Positions 39,974 through 51,751 are shown, counted from the stretch's first letter. The stretch is 64,000 nt of DNA from Candidatus Saccharimonadota bacterium (GCA_017519305.1 JAFWSN010000001.1:120296-184295), one strand, 5' to 3'. Notes: generated by a model not told the origin, from the letters alone. A program made the numbers and translations.

Positions 39974-42900
39974 GTGAGTACTAAACCGAAAAACGGTGAA
40001 CGTATGTTTTTCACCGAAGGTGACCAAGCACTCCCAATTCCTGATTTGATTGCACATCAAAAGGACTCTTGGGAAGACTTTGTCAAAAACGGACTCCGCG
40101 AGATTTTTACCGAGCTTAATCCAATCGACGATTACACCGGTCAAAAACTCTCTCTCCGTTTTAAAGATTATTATTTTAAAGAGCCGAAGCAAACCGAACG
40201 TGACGCCAAATACAACCTCGCAACCTACGAGGCTCCGCTTCATGTCTTGGTTGAGCTAGAAAACAAGGTAACCGGCACCAAAAAAGAGCAAGACATCTAC
40301 TTTGGTGACTATCCTTGGATGACCGATCGTGCTACCTTCATTATTAACGGTACCGAACGTGTTATCGTTTCTCAGTTGATTCGTTCAGCTGGTGTTTTCT
40401 TTACTGCTGACCACATTGGTCTTCGCAATTACTACGGTGCTAAGGTGATTCCTGGCCGTGGTGCTTGGCTCGAGTTTGAGACCGCTGCAAACGGTTCAAT
40501 CAACGTCAAGATTGACCGCCGCCGCAAGGTGCCAGTCACAACCTTCATGCGCGCTCTTGGTATGACTAAATCCGAAATCAAGAGCAAATTCGAACAGGTC
40601 GATACTGGCGAAATCAATTACATTGATTCGACTTTCGAAAAAGACACCACCTCTACTCAAGGTGAGGCCTTGCTCGAGGTTTACCGCCGTCTTCGCCCAG
40701 GTGATCTCGCCACAGTCGAAAACGCTAAATCAATGATTGAGCGCACTTTCTTCGATCCAAAACGCTATGATTATTCAAACGTTGGTCGTTTCAAGATTAA
40801 CAGCCGCCTTGGCTTTGATACGCCAAACGAACCAAAATTCCGTACTTTGCAGATGGAAGACCTCATTGCTATCGTAGCTGAGATTATCCGTCTCAATAAT
40901 ACGCAAGAACCAGCCGACGATATCGACTCCTTGGCTAACCGCCGCGTCAAACTCGTTGGCGAGTTGGTCCAACGCCAATTCCGTCTTGGTATGCTCCGCT
41001 TGCAGCGCAACATCCTCGACCGTATGTCGATGGCTAACCCAGAAGAAGTTACTCCATCCCAACTCCTTAACTCTCGCCCAGTCGTGGCCGCTGTTAAAGA
41101 GTTCTTCGCTAGCTCACAGCTCAGCCAGTTGATGGATGAAACCAACCCATTCTCTGAACTTGCACACAAACGTCGTCTAAGTTCGATGGGTCCTGGTGGT
41201 TTGACTCGTGAACGTGCCGGCTTCGATGTCCGTGACGCCCACCCAACCCACTACGGCCGCATCTGTACCGTTGAAACCCCAGAAGGTGGTAACGTCGGTC
41301 TCGTGCTTAACCTTGCAACTTATGCTCGCATTAACGAATATGGCTTCATCGAAGCGCCATACCGCGTCGTTAAAAACGGCAAAGTTACTGATGAAGTAGT
41401 CTACGTTGATGCTGCTGCTGAAAACGATATGATTATCGCTGACGCATCTGTTAAATTGAATAAAGATGGTAAATTCGTTGAGGAATGGGTCTCTGCTCGT
41501 GTCCACGGCGCGCCAGCCCAGGTCGAGTCAAAGAACGTTACTCATATCGATGCTGCCCACAAGGAAATTCTTGGTGTATCAGCCAGCTTGATTCCATTCG
41601 TTGAGAAAAACCGTGTTGACCGCTCTCTCATGGCCTGCGCCATGCAGAAACAGGCAGTCCCACTACTCAAGACCGATAACCCAATCGTTGGTACTGGTAT
41701 TGAGCGTGAAGTCGCTAAGAACACTTCACAGGTCGTCTTTGCCGAAGGCGCCGGTGTCGTGAAGAAAGCCGACGGCGAATCTGTTATTGTTGCTTACGAT
41801 AAAGGTGGTGACAAAGAATACAAACTCGTTCACTTCGAAAAGACCAATGATGACCGCTGTTACAACCAACACTGCCGCGTAGCTCGTGGTCAAAAGGTCA
41901 AAAAAGGCGACGTCATCATCGAGGGTGCATCTATCAATGATAATGAACTCGCTCTTGGCCGCGACCTTCTCGTTGCCTTCATGCCATGGCGTGGTTACAA
42001 CATGGATGATGCTATCGTCATTTCTAACCGCCTAGTCGAAGATGATACTTTGACTTCTATCAACATCAAAGACTTCGACGTCGAAGTCCGCGAAACCAAA
42101 CTTGGTCCAGAACAAGTTACTCGTGATATTCCAAACGTTTCTGAACACTCTCTCCGCCACCTTGGCGAAGACGGTATCGTTACAGTTGGTTCCGAAGTTG
42201 CTCCTGGTGATATCCTCGTTGGTAAAATTACGCCAAAGGGTGAACAGGAACTTAGCTCAGAGGAGCGCCTCCTCCGTGCTATCTTCGGTGAAAAAGCCAA
42301 AGACGTCCGCGATACTTCAGTTCGTATGAACGGTTCATCTACTGGTAAAGTTGTCGACGTCCGCGTTTACACTCGTGAACAAGGCCACGAACTCAAAGCC
42401 GGTGTCCTCATGCAAATCAAGATCTTCGTCGCTGAAATGCGCAAAATCGGCGTCGGTGATAAGCTTGCAGGTCGCCACGGTAACAAAGGTGTGGTCTCCC
42501 GCGTTCTCCCAGTAGAAGATATGCCATTCATGGCTGATGGTACTCCAATCGATGTAGTGCTTTCACCAATGGGTGTGCCTTCCCGTATGAACCTCGGTCA
42601 GCTCTTTGAAACTCACCTTGGTATGGCTGCTCGCGCTCTTGGTTACAAGGTCGCAACCCCATCCTTTAACGGTGTCCCAGATGAAAAAATCAGCGATGAG
42701 CTCGAAAAAGCTGGATTTGATCGTGATGGTCGCGTCCAACTCTTCGACGGTCTCACCGGTGAACCATTCGAAGAACGCACCTCAGTCGGTGTGATGCACA
42801 TGCTCAAACTTCACCACATGGTCGAAGACAAGATCCACGCTCGTTCAACCGGTCCTTACACCATGGTTACCCAACAGCCACTCGGTGGTAAAGCCCAGAA

Positions 42901-43348
42901 CGGTGGTCAGCGCTTCGGTGAAATGGAGGTGTGGGCTCTTGAGGCTTATGGTGCTGCTACCACGCTTCAGGAAATGCTCACCATCAAATCTGATGATGTT
43001 TACGGCCGCGCTAAAGCATACGAATCAATCATCAAACGTGAACCAATCGAAGGTCCAAAGCTTCCAGAAGGTTTCAACGTCTTGGTTAAGGAACTTCAAG
43101 GTCTTGGCCTTAAGGTTGACCTCCTCGATCACGGCGAAGCCGCTGATGCTGGCGACGTAATTGAAAAGACCTCACGCGAGATTGAGCGTACCAAAGATGA
43201 TCAATCGATTTACGATCAACACAAGAAGGATGCCGAACCAGAAATCGTCGACCTCGATGCCGAGGAAGAGGCTGCTCTGGAAGATGAAGGCATGGAAATA
43301 ATAGAAGAAGAGGACGATGGTACAGTCGACCTCGGAGAGGAGTTCTAA
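39974..43348 (+). CDS. rpoB: RNA polymerase beta subunit
   Basis: SQLSQLMDETNP, ETPEG, GDKLAGRHGNKG, GGQRFGEMEVWALEAYGA. Confidence 0.99.
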   Translation: MSTKPKNGERMFFTEGDQALPIPDLIAHQKDSWEDFVKNGLREIFTELNPIDDYTGQKLSLRFKDYYFKEPKQTERDAKYNLATYEAPLHVLVELENKVTGTKKEQDIYFGDYPWMTDRATFIINGTERVIVSQLIRSAGVFFTADHIGLRNYYGAKVIPGRGAWLEFETAANGSINVKIDRRRKVPVTTFMRALGMTKSEIKSKFEQVDTGEINYIDSTFEKDTTSTQGEALLEVYRRLRPGDLATVENAKSMIERTFFDPKRYDYSNVGRFKINSRLGFDTPNEPKFRTLQMEDLIAIVAEIIRLNNTQEPADDIDSLANRRVKLVGELVQRQFRLGMLRLQRNILDRMSMANPEEVTPSQLLNSRPVVAAVKEFFASSQLSQLMDETNPFSELAHKRRLSSMGPGGLTRERAGFDVRDAHPTHYGRICTVETPEGGNVGLVLNLATYARINEYGFIEAPYRVVKNGKVTDEVVYVDAAAENDMIIADASVKLNKDGKFVEEWVSARVHGAPAQVESKNVTHIDAAHKEILGVSASLIPFVEKNRVDRSLMACAMQKQAVPLLKTDNPIVGTGIEREVAKNTSQVVFAEGAGVVKKADGESVIVAYDKGGDKEYKLVHFEKTNDDRCYNQHCRVARGQKVKKGDVIIEGASINDNELALGRDLLVAFMPWRGYNMDDAIVISNRLVEDDTLTSINIKDFDVEVRETKLGPEQVTRDIPNVSEHSLRHLGEDGIVTVGSEVAPGDILVGKITPKGEQELSSEERLLRAIFGEKAKDVRDTSVRMNGSSTGKVVDVRVYTREQGHELKAGVLMQIKIFVAEMRKIGVGDKLAGRHGNKGVVSRVLPVEDMPFMADGTPIDVVLSPMGVPSRMNLGQLFETHLGMAARALGYKVATPSFNGVPDEKISDELEKAGFDRDGRVQLFDGLTGEPFEERTSVGVMHMLKLHHMVEDKIHARSTGPYTMVTQQPLGGKAQNGGQRFGEMEVWALEAYGAATTLQEMLTIKSDDVYGRAKAYESIIKREPIEGPKLPEGFNVLVKELQGLGLKVDLLDHGEAADAGDVIEKTSREIERTKDDQSIYDQHKKDAEPEIVDLDAEEEAALEDEGMEIIEEEDDGTVDLGEEF

Positions 43349-43349
43349 T

Positions 43350-46300
43350 ATGGCTTGGATGGATAATTTTATCAGTGCCTCTGACTTTGATTCAATCCGT
43401 CTAACAGTGGCCAATGCGGACGACATCTTAAACTGGAGCTATGGCGAAGTTACAAAGCCAGAAACCATTAACTACCGTACCCAAAAACCGGAACGTGATG
43501 GTCTCTTCTGCGAACGTATCTTCGGTCCAACCAAAGATATCAATCCACATGATTCAAAACTAAAAGGTGTGCGCTCTCGTGAAGCTGCCGTCGATAAGGA
43601 AGGTAACCTCGTTACTAAATCTATCGCCCGCCGCGAACGCATGGGTCACATCTCCCTCGCTGCACCAGTTGCTCACATCTGGTTCATGCGTGGTACCCCA
43701 TCAGCGATTAGTCTTTTGCTCGATATCACTGTTAAAAACATTGAGAAAGTTGTCTACTTTGCAACTTACCTCATCACCGAAGCAAAAGATGAAGAAATTG
43801 CTAAAACTCTCGAATCACTCGAGAACCAAACCATCGCCGCTCGTGAGGCTATCCGCCTTCGCTACGAGAAGGAATCTAAAGATGGTGATGTAAAAGCTCT
43901 TGCTGAAGCTCAGACTAAAGAATTGGCTGAACTCGAGAGTGATTACCAAGCTAAAAAATCGATGCTCGAATCCTTCAAGAAAGGCGGCACGATTACTGAA
44001 GTTGAATATCGTAATCTTCCAGAAGAATACGAAGATTTGATTACTGTCGAGATGGGCGCAACCGCCATCAAGAAAATGCTCGACGAAATCGATCTCGACC
44101 AACTTATCGAAAAACTTCACGCTGAAGCTAAAGAAGCTAAAGGCCAAAAAGAGAAAAAGATTCAAAAACGTCTTAAAACTCTCGAAGGCATGCAGGCTGC
44201 TGGTATCAAGCCAACTGATCTTGTCTTGACTGTTATCCCAGTCATCCCACCAGATCTACGTCCAATGATCGCACTTCCTGGTGGTCGCTTCGCAACCTCA
44301 GATCTTAACGATCTTTATCGCCGCGTGATCAACCGTAACAACCGTTTGCGCAAACTTCTCGACCTTAACGCTCCAGAAGTTATCTGCCGCAACGAGATGC
44401 GCATGCTCCAAGAGGCTGTAGATGCTCTTATTGACAACTCTGCTTCTCATGCTGCCAGCTCTAGCAACGGTCGTCGCAAACTTAAATCACTTTCCGACCT
44501 CCTCAAAGGTAAACAGGGTCGCTTCCGCCAGAACCTTCTTGGTAAACGCGTCGACTACTCTGGTCGTTCAGTGATTGTCGTTGGTCCGGAACTTCGTCTT
44601 AACGAATGTGGTTTGCCAAAACAAATGGCACTTGAGCTCTTTAAGCCATTCGTCATTTCTTGGCTCATTGCTAACGAACACGCCAACAATATCCGCTCAG
44701 CTTCTCGCTTGATCGAAGCTAAAGAAACCGTCGTTTGGGATGCTTTGGACGAGGTAATTAAGGGTAAATATGTGCTCTTAAACCGTGCACCATCCCTTCA
44801 CCGTTTGTCCGTTCAGGCCTTCCAACCACGCCTTATCGATGGTAAAGCTATCAAACTTCATCCACTCGTAGCATCTGGTTTCAACGCCGACTACGATGGT
44901 GACCAGATGGCTGTTCACCTACCACTCTCTGACGCTGCTCAGGCTGAGGCTCGTGAACTCATGGCTGCTGATAAGAACCTTTTGAAACCTGCTGATGGCG
45001 CGCCAGTGCTCGCTATTTATCAGGACGTCGTGCTCGGTGCTTACTACCTTACTTACGACAAGCCAGGTACTGACCAAGGCGATCCAAAAGCCTTCTCATC
45101 AGTCTACGAAGCTGAACTCGCTTACGACCAGGGAATCATCCACTTGCAAACCCCAATTCGCGTGTTTGCGAAGCGCGAGATTCGCGATACTACTCTTGGC
45201 CGTGTTATCTTCAACGAAATCTTGCCAAAAGATTATCCATACGATAACTCAGTCCAGACCAAGAAACACCTTTCTAAGGTCATGGCCGACATCTTTGATA
45301 TGTACGGTGCTGAAGTAACGGTTAAAACCGCTGACGCCCTCAAGGATCTCGCCTTCGAATATGAGACTATCGCTTCAATCTCTACCGCTAAGGATGATTA
45401 TCCAACCTACGACGAAATTGATGACTTCCTCGCTGAAGGTGACGCCAAAACCGCCCTCATTCAGGAACAATTCAACGAAGGTCTTGTTACCGAAGAAGAA
45501 CGTTACAAACTCACTATCGCCAACTGGCGTGATATCGATAAGAAGATTTCTGACTTCCTTCAGAGCAAACTTGCCGAGATGGATACCGATATCGCTGTGA
45601 TGGTTAACTCCGGTGCTCGTGGTAACATTTCTAACATTAAGCTTGCTTCCGCCGAGATTGGTATCATGGTGGATATTAACAACAACGAAATTGAGCTTCC
45701 AGTTAAATCAAGCTACAAGAAAGGTCTTAACACCCTCGAATCCTTCATCGCCACTCGTGGTGCACGTCAAGGTCAGGTGTCTACCGCTCTTCGTACCGCT
45801 GACTCTGGTTACCTCACCCGTCGTCTCGTTGACGTCTCCCAAGATGTCTTTACTACCGACGAAGAAGCTGAAGACCCAGGTTACACTGTTAACCGTGAAG
45901 ATTCTGAACAATCTGGCGTGCCATTCAAGGCATGGATCTCCGGTCGCTATGCCGCCGAAGCTGTTCCAGGCTATGTCGAAGCTGACGAATTGATCACCCC
46001 TGATCTTGCTGCTCAAATCGACGCCGATGATAACGTCAAATCAGTCAAGATTCAATCTGTACTTTCAACCACTGCTGTTAACGGCATCCCACGCAAAGCT
46101 TACGGCGTTGATATGTCTACCCGTGAACTCGTGGCCGCCAACCAACCAGTCGGTGTGATTGCCGCTCAATCCCTTGGTGAACCAGGTACCCAGCTTACCC
46201 TCGATACCAAACACGGTTCTGGTGTGGCAGGTTCTGGTGCTATCGCCCGTGGTCTTCCTCGTGTTGAAGAGCTTCTCGAAGCCCGCAGCCCGAAAGGTCA

Positions 46301-47171
46301 AGCTTACATCTCTACCATCGATGGTACGGTTGAAGCTTGGGAAGATGGTAACCACTATGTGGTTCAAATCACCCCACAATCTGGCGATATTGAACGTTAT
46401 GAACTTAATGGTCGCAAGGCCGAAGTCAAGGATGGTCAATCAGTTAAAGCTGGTGCTACCTTGGTCAAGAAGGCTGGCAAAGATGCTGCTATCAAGGCTA
46501 AATTCGACGGTATCGTTGAACTAGTCAAAGATGGTATTGTGCTCGTTGCTGCTGCTACTGCTCCAGTTCGCGTTGAAATCCCTGGCGATGCTGAACTTCT
46601 CGTCAAGAATGGCGACGTCGTCGCTGCTGGTGATCGTCTCACCACCGGTTCTTTGAACCTCCAAGACCTCATGAAGTACAAAGGTATCGAAGCTGCTGAA
46701 CGCTACATCATGAACGATGTTCTTAACGTTTACGCCGCTCAGGGCCACGAAATCTCACCGAAACACCTTGAGATTCTCGTTCGCCAAATGTTCTCTCGTG
46801 TACAGATCAACGAACCTGGTGACTCTAGCTTCGTTTCAGGCGATATCGTCTCGAAAGCTGCTGCTGTTACCGAGAACCAGAGACTCGAAGCCGCCGGCAA
46901 GGCTCCAGCTACCTGGACCAACTTGCTCCTTGGTATCACCAAAGTCTCTATCTTCTCCGATTCGTTCTTGTCTGCTGCATCCTTCCAGGATACGACTCGC
47001 GTTCTTATTAATGCCGCTATCAACGGTCGCGTCGACCACTTGAACGGCCTCAAAGAGAACGTCATCATCGGTCGCAAGATTCCTGTAGGTACTGGCGTCA
47101 AGCCAATCGAAACCGAAGAGGAATTAATTTCCGAAGGTGAACCAACCGAAGAGGAAATCGCTGAACTCTAA
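43350..47171 (+). CDS. rpoC: RNA polymerase beta' subunit
   Basis: KPETINYRT, GRFRQNLLGKRVDYSGR, NRAPSLHR, NADYDGD, ASFQDT. Start at ATG 43350 after GAGGAG. Confidence 0.99.
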   Translation: MAWMDNFISASDFDSIRLTVANADDILNWSYGEVTKPETINYRTQKPERDGLFCERIFGPTKDINPHDSKLKGVRSREAAVDKEGNLVTKSIARRERMGHISLAAPVAHIWFMRGTPSAISLLLDITVKNIEKVVYFATYLITEAKDEEIAKTLESLENQTIAAREAIRLRYEKESKDGDVKALAEAQTKELAELESDYQAKKSMLESFKKGGTITEVEYRNLPEEYEDLITVEMGATAIKKMLDEIDLDQLIEKLHAEAKEAKGQKEKKIQKRLKTLEGMQAAGIKPTDLVLTVIPVIPPDLRPMIALPGGRFATSDLNDLYRRVINRNNRLRKLLDLNAPEVICRNEMRMLQEAVDALIDNSASHAASSSNGRRKLKSLSDLLKGKQGRFRQNLLGKRVDYSGRSVIVVGPELRLNECGLPKQMALELFKPFVISWLIANEHANNIRSASRLIEAKETVVWDALDEVIKGKYVLLNRAPSLHRLSVQAFQPRLIDGKAIKLHPLVASGFNADYDGDQMAVHLPLSDAAQAEARELMAADKNLLKPADGAPVLAIYQDVVLGAYYLTYDKPGTDQGDPKAFSSVYEAELAYDQGIIHLQTPIRVFAKREIRDTTLGRVIFNEILPKDYPYDNSVQTKKHLSKVMADIFDMYGAEVTVKTADALKDLAFEYETIASISTAKDDYPTYDEIDDFLAEGDAKTALIQEQFNEGLVTEEERYKLTIANWRDIDKKISDFLQSKLAEMDTDIAVMVNSGARGNISNIKLASAEIGIMVDINNNEIELPVKSSYKKGLNTLESFIATRGARQGQVSTALRTADSGYLTRRLVDVSQDVFTTDEEAEDPGYTVNREDSEQSGVPFKAWISGRYAAEAVPGYVEADELITPDLAAQIDADDNVKSVKIQSVLSTTAVNGIPRKAYGVDMSTRELVAANQPVGVIAAQSLGEPGTQLTLDTKHGSGVAGSGAIARGLPRVEELLEARSPKGQAYISTIDGTVEAWEDGNHYVVQITPQSGDIERYELNGRKAEVKDGQSVKAGATLVKKAGKDAAIKAKFDGIVELVKDGIVLVAAATAPVRVEIPGDAELLVKNGDVVAAGDRLTTGSLNLQDLMKYKGIEAAERYIMNDVLNVYAAQGHEISPKHLEILVRQMFSRVQINEPGDSSFVSGDIVSKAAAVTENQRLEAAGKAPATWTNLLLGITKVSIFSDSFLSAASFQDTTRVLINAAINGRVDHLNGLKENVIIGRKIPVGTGVKPIETEEELISEGEPTEEEIAEL

Positions 47172-51634: not shown

Positions 51635-51751
51635 ATGAAAGTACGTGCTAGTGTTAAAAAAATCTCCCCTGATGACATCATTGTCCGCCGCAAAGGTGTA
51701 CTTCGTGTTATCAACAAGAAAAAACCTAAAAATAAGCAAAGGCAGGGTTAA
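51635..51751 (+). CDS. rpmJ: 50S ribosomal protein L36 (Cys-free form)
   Basis: Translated by hand as [38 protein letters not shown]; absent from the ORF track. Confidence 0.95.

Follow-up and report, generated by a model that had tools for sequence, protein, structure and literature searches.

We report that the rpoC gene (positions 43350..47171, + strand) in a stretch of 64,000 nucleotides from a Candidatus Saccharimonadota bacterium (GCA_017519305.1, JAFWSN010000001.1:120296-184295; the whole stretch is referred to as the window) encodes an RNA polymerase beta' subunit in which the four ligand positions of the second zinc site carry residues unable to bind metal (Ala, Thr, Pro and Ala). 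We estimate a probability of roughly 85% that this rpoC is functional and single-copy and that the module housing the site, which lies between bridge helix and trigger loop and is approximately 120 residues long, has changed from a fold clamped by a Zn(Cys)4 centre to a metal-free one. The cysteines of the first zinc site are missing as well, and the beta' subunit of the order to which the window belongs, Saccharimonadales, probably folds without structural zinc.

In a MAFFT alignment against RpoC of E. coli K-12, the first arm of what used to be the second zinc site, RRLVDVSQDVFTTDEEAED, lies at 45819..45875 (+ strand, residues 835-853) and the zinc-knuckle remnant, QSVLSTTAVNGIPRKAYG, at 46053..46106 (+ strand, residues 913-930); residues are numbered throughout according to an open reading frame (ORF) of 1284 amino acids that starts at 43317. 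Specifically, E. coli C814 corresponds to A851 (codon GCT, 45867-45869), C888 to T918 (ACC, 46068-46070), C895 to P925 (CCA, 46089-46091) and C898 to A928 (GCT, 46098-46100), and a near-universal arginine (E. coli R883) is replaced by Q913 (codon 46053-46055). This bears out a preliminary description of the window, made from the sequence by itself, in which C814 was read as Ala and the knuckle cysteines as Thr, Pro and Ala. Each of the four ligand codons is two to three base changes away from TGY and the replacements are therefore not sequencing slips. The canonical cysteine pattern of the site (C ... C-x6-C-x2-C) is not present, and the module from RRLVD to GEPGTQ (119 amino acids) has neither Cys nor His, while the three cysteines of the whole subunit (residues 65, 357 and 431) are all distant from both zinc sites. 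Alignments to Clostridium beta' chains in the PDB generated with phmmer give an identical register. The C814 column shifts by one residue between alignments and the loop in question, DVFTTDEEAEDPGY, offers no possible ligand in either register. Realignment could have placed other Cys or His ligands at the site, but three alignments (phmmer/PDB, MAFFT with E. coli K-12 and MAFFT within the clade) agree that none is within reach in the 119-residue module.

The first zinc-binding-domain remnant, IFGPTKDINPHDSKLKGVRSREAAVDKEGNLVT, at 43518..43616 (+ strand), is full length and has no cysteines. In the MAFFT alignment with E. coli K-12 RpoC, C70/C72/C85/C88 are replaced by P77/D79/V92/E95, in agreement with the preliminary description, and the same loss is seen in all order members. 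The remnant is the most conserved part of beta' within the order (entropy 0.30) and retains invariant H78, D79 and D93, which could in principle bind a metal. The earlier statement that the enzyme appears completely zinc-free stands as far as both sites are without cysteine ligands; with respect to the metal itself it is a well-supported prediction.

The gene itself clearly belongs to the RpoC family and appears to be genuine, functional and single-copy. The longest ORF extends over 43317..47171 (+ strand, 1284 codons) and encloses the stretch 45860-46110 around the knuckle. The true start is probably the ATG at 43350, 11 residues after the start of the longest ORF, resulting in 1273 amino acids, because close homologs begin 11 residues later and a 100%-identical homolog has 1273 amino acids; this ATG is one base past the stop of rpoB. 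The latter gene (39974..43348, + strand), which encodes the beta subunit and has four cysteines, none in a known zinc site, is positioned directly upstream, and the rpoB-rpoC order together with the single copy is the expected context of a bacterial rpoC. The reading frame is open with no internal stops, all five Rpb1 domains are present in order (Pfam PF04997, PF00623, PF04983, PF05000 and PF04998; E-values 7e-73 to 7e-5), and solved bacterial beta' chains in the PDB match at E=0 (phmmer) and are collinear over the full length. The best Foldseek matches of the structural model are likewise beta' chains (E-value 1e-42). The catalytic motif NADYDGDQM has all three Asp residues and differs from NADFDGD by a Phe to Tyr change. 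The bridge helix has the sequence TALRTADSGYLTRRLVDV and the trigger loop, with its His, the sequence GEPGTQLTLDTKH. The genome assembly (786 kb, 11 contigs, 97% complete) gave one rpoC match.

Among the 120 closest database homologs (86-100% identity) the knuckle cysteines are absent in 120/120, and whole-genome searches revealed that both sites are absent in every sampled family of Saccharimonadales. Sister orders of the same class keep 8/8 cysteines at 20/20 loci, and the second site is kept at 13/13 loci from other classes of Patescibacteria. In a maximum likelihood tree based on 89 beta' sequences the zinc-less subunits form one monophyletic clade (49 tips, support 1.0), with zinc-bearing sequences (L048, L049 and L054) as its sister (support 1.0), and the stem branch of the zinc-less clade is 3.5x the median internal branch. 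Since the order members all lack the sites, the sister orders keep them and the zinc-less clade is monophyletic, the double loss is a shared derived trait of one order, which does not extend to all bacteria that go by the name Saccharibacteria. Among 80 loci of a named sample, one metagenome-assembled genome (MAG) titled "Candidatus Saccharimonadales bacterium" is zinc-less and six "uncultured Candidatus Saccharibacteria" MAGs keep both sites; with these MAGs and the sister orders, a loss across the whole phylum or all "Saccharibacteria" is ruled out. Within the zinc-less clade, a long-branch subgroup (P0124-P0126) has RKLVYVAQ or RRLVYVAQ at the end of the bridge helix, compared to RRLVDV, and N-terminal insertions of 40-100 residues.

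The tree and these distributions indicate that the second site was lost once, on the stem of Saccharimonadales, with the first-site cysteines and the zinc finger of RecR (see below) lost on the same branch. For the 42 full-length order members the C895 position is occupied by Pro (33), Ser (7), Ala (1) or Asp (1) and the C898 position by Ser (31) or Ala (11), with Cys at neither. The C888 position is still Cys in 4/42, and some families that keep this cysteine also have Cys at the C814 position (L012, L015, L075 and L076). Because no order member keeps the knuckle cysteines and yet some families carry orphan cysteines at C814/C888, the knuckle cysteines would have been the first to go; most simply, the stem lineage would have lost the CxxC knuckle, with the orphan cysteines decaying ever since. 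The preliminary description considered the two sites to have been lost independently. They are indeed physically separate, but both losses, and that of the RecR site, map to one stem branch, so that the loss of both looks like one lineage-level episode and not two unrelated events.

To see the loss in a wider context, we surveyed 150 representatives of beta' clusters (50% identity) across bacteria, together with the named sample. Among the 150 representatives only Saccharibacteria-like sequences (P0123-P0127 and P0212) have lost both sites, while four clusters (P0180, P0181, P0197 and P0203) have lost the second site and kept the four first-site cysteines. P0181 belongs to the Verrucomicrobiota class Opitutae, where the knuckle is absent in 119/119 relatives among the matches listed, and the losers include Cerasicoccus arenae, Rubellicoccus peritrichatus and MAGs labelled Puniceicoccales and Opitutales. 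P0203 represents a large group labelled Acidimicrobiia, Acidimicrobiales or Acidimicrobiaceae and its knuckle is absent in 120/120 relatives among the matches listed; that all Acidimicrobiia are without the second site is ruled out, as Iamia sp. and another Acidimicrobiia MAG keep it. In the named sample, Brevibacterium sp. UMB10442 (locus L216) has the first but not the second site. Further sequences with loss of only the second site are found in Opitutae (P0359 and P0400) and Acidimicrobiia-like bacteria (P0424 and P0429). Several hits of the regular-expression screen were discounted as false positives: a Gracilibacteria locus with an ORF cut short by an alternative code, loci truncated at the N-terminus, P0136, P0214, P0250 and P0260 with a register shift of one residue, and earlier KRLVD-like motifs. 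A separate case is P0270 (1897 amino acids), in which His takes the place of C814 next to three retained cysteines, so that its second site may be of a Cys3His type.

Loss of only the second site amounts to approximately 2-3% of the sampled clusters outside Saccharimonadales. The same loss being common across bacteria would speak against the preliminary description, and this applies in part: the loss is uncommon but clearly recurrent, and it is found also in cultured free-living bacteria. Since at least four other bacterial lineages have arrived at the same solution on their own, the second site is dispensable and zinc not intrinsically required there. Its loss is not unique; loss of both sites is seen only in Saccharimonadales.

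The independent losers converge on the same substitutions, namely C895 to Pro, Ser or Thr, C898 to Ala or Ser, and R883 to a non-basic residue. Across these losers Pro, Ser or Thr replaces C895; Ala or Ser, occasionally Gly, His or Asp, replaces C898; and Thr, Ser, Ala, Asp or His replaces C888. The resulting motifs are SPLTH..IPAKAYG in Opitutae, SPLTDDS..GISAxSYG in the Acidimicrobiia-like group, ..ISAQHYG in Brevibacterium and ..GLSTRSYG in P0197, and the similarity is close between TM7 (G-I-P-R-K-A-Y-G) and Opitutae (x-I-P-A-K-A-Y-G). The Arg five residues before C888 is present in 213/219 (97%) of the site-intact sequences compared to 3/47 of the zinc-less ones; each independent lineage has replaced it, by Gln, Met or Leu (Saccharimonadales), Met or Leu (Opitutae), Leu (Acidimicrobiia-like), Cys (P0197) or His (Brevibacterium).

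The zinc-less module is not degenerating and is as conserved as in zinc-bearing relatives. Its length across the order is unchanged (119-120 residues), and the column entropy is 1.09 for the knuckle and 1.12 for the first arm, compared to 1.20 and 1.44, respectively, in the zinc-bearing relatives. In an AlphaFold2 model of residues 600-1284 (685 amino acids), residues 850-929 are the best part, with a predicted local distance difference test score (pLDDT) of 85-93, and a short helix (926-929) follows immediately after P925.

We propose that the metal-free module is held by ordinary packing. The Pro, Ser or Thr at the C895 position may cap the short helix that starts there, which fits the predicted secondary structure and known helix-capping preferences, and the small residues at the C898 (Ala/Ser) and C888 (Thr/Ser/Ala) positions would fill the cavity left by the metal. 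As for the Arg located five residues ahead of C888, its charge probably offset that of the anionic Zn(Cys)4 centre; once this centre was gone the Arg would have become dispensable and been replaced by Gln, Met or Leu. On balance we consider it fairly likely that Saccharimonadales transcribe with a cellular multisubunit RNA polymerase without any structural zinc, and that the reported role of the second zinc as a folding chaperone can be bypassed by a repeatedly evolved rule (a non-basic residue for R883, Pro/Ser/Thr for C895, Ala/Ser for C898, and a small residue for both C814 and C888) in at least five independent lineages.

Other zinc sites of the lineage are also affected. RecR has lost its four-cysteine (Cys4) finger, with only the first Cys kept (C10:245903-246505 in genome coordinates, outside the window; locus L098). 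The finger is lost in 13/13 order members and intact in 16/16 genomes of sister orders and other classes, which places its loss on the same branch as the polymerase losses. DnaX (C10:241387-242796, outside the window; locus L128) is without the four-Cys zinc module between the Walker A and DAAS motifs and is approximately 11 residues shorter. Besides the order, seven sister families (f19, f20, f21, f24, f25, f29 and f31) share this deletion, so that the DnaX loss is older than the polymerase loss or has been repeated. Moreover, rpmJ (51635..51751, + strand; C10:171927-172043), identified by motif and length, encodes a cysteine-free form of ribosomal protein L36 (38 amino acids) in which the Cys3His zinc ligands are replaced, and a motif search apparently matched no other copy. 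With respect to zinc uptake, ZnuA and ZIP transporters were looked for in the genome of the window and neither was detected; for the genus of the window, a ZIP transporter is present in 0/13 genomes and a ZnuA-family binding protein in 4/13.

The most likely cause of the polymerase losses is that information-processing proteins throughout the lineage have given up their structural Cys4 zinc sites step by step, in a process in which the DnaX site would have been lost first, followed by both RNA polymerase sites and the RecR finger, with L36 affected too; this causal part is the weakest step of our explanation. Overall, proteins of replication, repair, transcription and translation seem to have shed structural zinc sites stepwise and selectively, and the cell as a whole is not zinc-free. 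A tiny epibiont could gain from such losses by saving zinc or by having fewer thiol sites open to oxidation.

Several observations weigh against this explanation, in part or as a whole. We infer the absence of zinc in the enzyme from the missing ligands. The alignment behind the confident AlphaFold2 model contained zinc-bearing sister sequences, and for an isolated fragment of 171 amino acids modelled with zinc-less sequences only the knuckle pLDDT is 56-66 (83-94 for the core, residues 855-914). Foldseek confirms the beta' fold for both models, at a root mean square deviation of 13-15 Å that stems from domain placement and is uninformative on knuckle geometry, and the proposals regarding helix capping, packing and the Arg-zinc relation build on the DSSP string and covariation. 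As to zinc economy as a motive, the genome of the window retains paired CxxC/Cys4 modules in proteins identified by eye as RadA, PriA, UvrA, Fpg, a MurT-like ligase, a ComF-like protein and PilD, and paired CxxC modules also in rubrerythrin. The proteome has an ordinary cysteine content (0.95%), which together with the retained Cys4 modules rules out a general cysteine depletion. ZIP transporters are kept in other families of the order, being present in all eight other families sampled, and free-living Opitutae and Acidimicrobiia have lost the second site (and only this site), so an epibiotic lifestyle is not required.

Some of these points bear on a different explanation, i.e. that the sites decayed neutrally under relaxed selection in a reduced genome, without adaptation, and that zinc was never strictly needed after a few compensating changes. 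This is possible, and we regard it as the alternative to be taken seriously. It is consistent with the many retained Cys4 modules and the normal cysteine content, with the long stem branch, and with the recurrence of the loss in unrelated free-living lineages with large genomes (Acidimicrobiia-like contigs of 3-5 Mb, and a contig of 5.8 Mb with Rubellicoccus peritrichatus P0400). However, one branch saw the disappearance of at least three separate Cys4 sites, two of them in RNA polymerase and one in RecR, the DnaX site was lost earlier and L36 is zinc-less, a concentration that exceeds what is expected from unlinked neutral events; in addition, the module has afterwards been as conserved as in zinc-bearing clades.

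That the module still binds metal through other ligands (His, Asp, Glu or a distant Cys) missed by plain alignment is very unlikely. In its favour, the first arm has an acidic stretch (DEEAED), Mg, Ca or Mn can be bound by sites rich in carboxylates, and the His at the C814 position of P0270 illustrates that ligand substitution does occur in beta'. The ligand positions of the window, on the other hand, are Ala, Thr, Pro and Ala in a module of 119 residues with no Cys or His, the order as a whole does not conserve the acidic residues, the three cysteines of the protein are far away in the sequence (65, 357 and 431), and the second-shell Arg is lost, as expected without an anionic centre. We find it highly improbable that the clamp is supplied in trans by a small zinc-binding protein or another subunit. 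Nothing in favour of this was found, the module is full length and predicted by AlphaFold2 to fold alone, and the same substitutions in five unrelated lineages argue for an intramolecular solution. Finally, an artefact (pseudogene, misassembly, contamination or a second intact rpoC elsewhere), which a draft genome in 11 contigs might suggest, is effectively refuted by the open frame with all Rpb1 domains and the NADYDGD motif, by the single rpoC match, a second copy having been sought in the 97%-complete genome and not found, and by the same state in more than 160 independent sequences from many assemblies, with ligand codons two to three bases from Cys.

Conversion of the second zinc module to a metal-free fold has to be related to what is said about this site in E. 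coli, where zinc is reportedly needed for productive folding and assembly of beta' (Markov et al. 1999, Genes Dev 13:2439); the preliminary description had linked the site to these processes, in line with this report. Compared with the canonical E. coli site (C814/C888/C895/C898), the gene, the position of the module between bridge helix and trigger loop, its length and its flanks (RRLVDV ... YG.D ... GEPGTQL) are the same, but the window beta' has Ala, Thr, Pro and Ala at the cysteines and Gln at R883, and the folding requirement must be bypassed. The losers of only the second site (Opitutae, Acidimicrobiia-like bacteria, Brevibacterium sp. UMB10442, P0197 and P0180) share the loss and the convergent changes (C895 to Pro/Ser/Thr, C898 to Ala/Ser and R883 to Met/Leu/His/Cys); unlike Saccharimonadales, the only group without both sites, they keep the four first-site cysteines.

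A parallel is found among ribosomal proteins, where "C-minus" paralogs of the zinc-ribbon proteins L31, L33, L36 and S14 are reported to act as zinc-independent replacements (Makarova 2001; Panina 2003). In these, a Cys4 or Cys3His site has likewise given way to a metal-free version of the same fold, and L36 in the genome of the window is of that type. The zinc-free ribosomal form is usually a second, Zur-regulated copy, whereas for the window beta' the sole copy of an essential subunit has been permanently converted. In the largest subunits of archaeal and eukaryotic RNA polymerases the region from bridge helix to trigger loop works without a zinc site at the exact position; these subunits differ in the insertion found in that region and remain zinc enzymes by virtue of several other zinc sites.

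The textbook view is that all cellular multisubunit RNA polymerases are zinc metalloenzymes. Essential zinc enzymes are commonly illustrated with RNA polymerase, as in the introduction of PMC11112998 (which cites Markov et al. 1999). Of the two beta' sites, it is the second that has been linked to folding and assembly. Full-text literature searches gave no published description of a zinc-less beta' in Saccharibacteria, TM7, Patescibacteria or elsewhere, nor of the losers of only the second site (Opitutae, Acidimicrobiia-like and others). A whole bacterial order that includes human-associated TM7 does without both sites, and unrelated groups with cultured members have dropped the second one only. 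These lineages offer natural experiments on the role of zinc in RNA polymerase, on the minimal set of substitutions that replaces it, and on a possible influence of zinc supply or thiol oxidation on the core machinery of epibionts with reduced genomes. For annotation and modelling, zinc sites should not be assumed to be present in these lineages.

Two further features of the window beta' concern its catalytic region. The NADYDGD form of the motif that usually reads NADFDGD is located at approximately 44880-44906 (residues 522-530), and this Tyr form is present in 24/42 order members and 0/18 sister-order sequences. The trigger loop GEPGTQLTLDTKH (46176-46214, residues 954-966) differs from the E. 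coli sequence GEPGTQLTMRTFH by M932L, R933D and F935K; R933 of the E. coli beta' trigger loop normally contacts the substrate. Among the 42 order sequences, LTLDTKH is present in 13 and LSLDSKH in 6, and the rest keep Arg or Lys at the R933 position.

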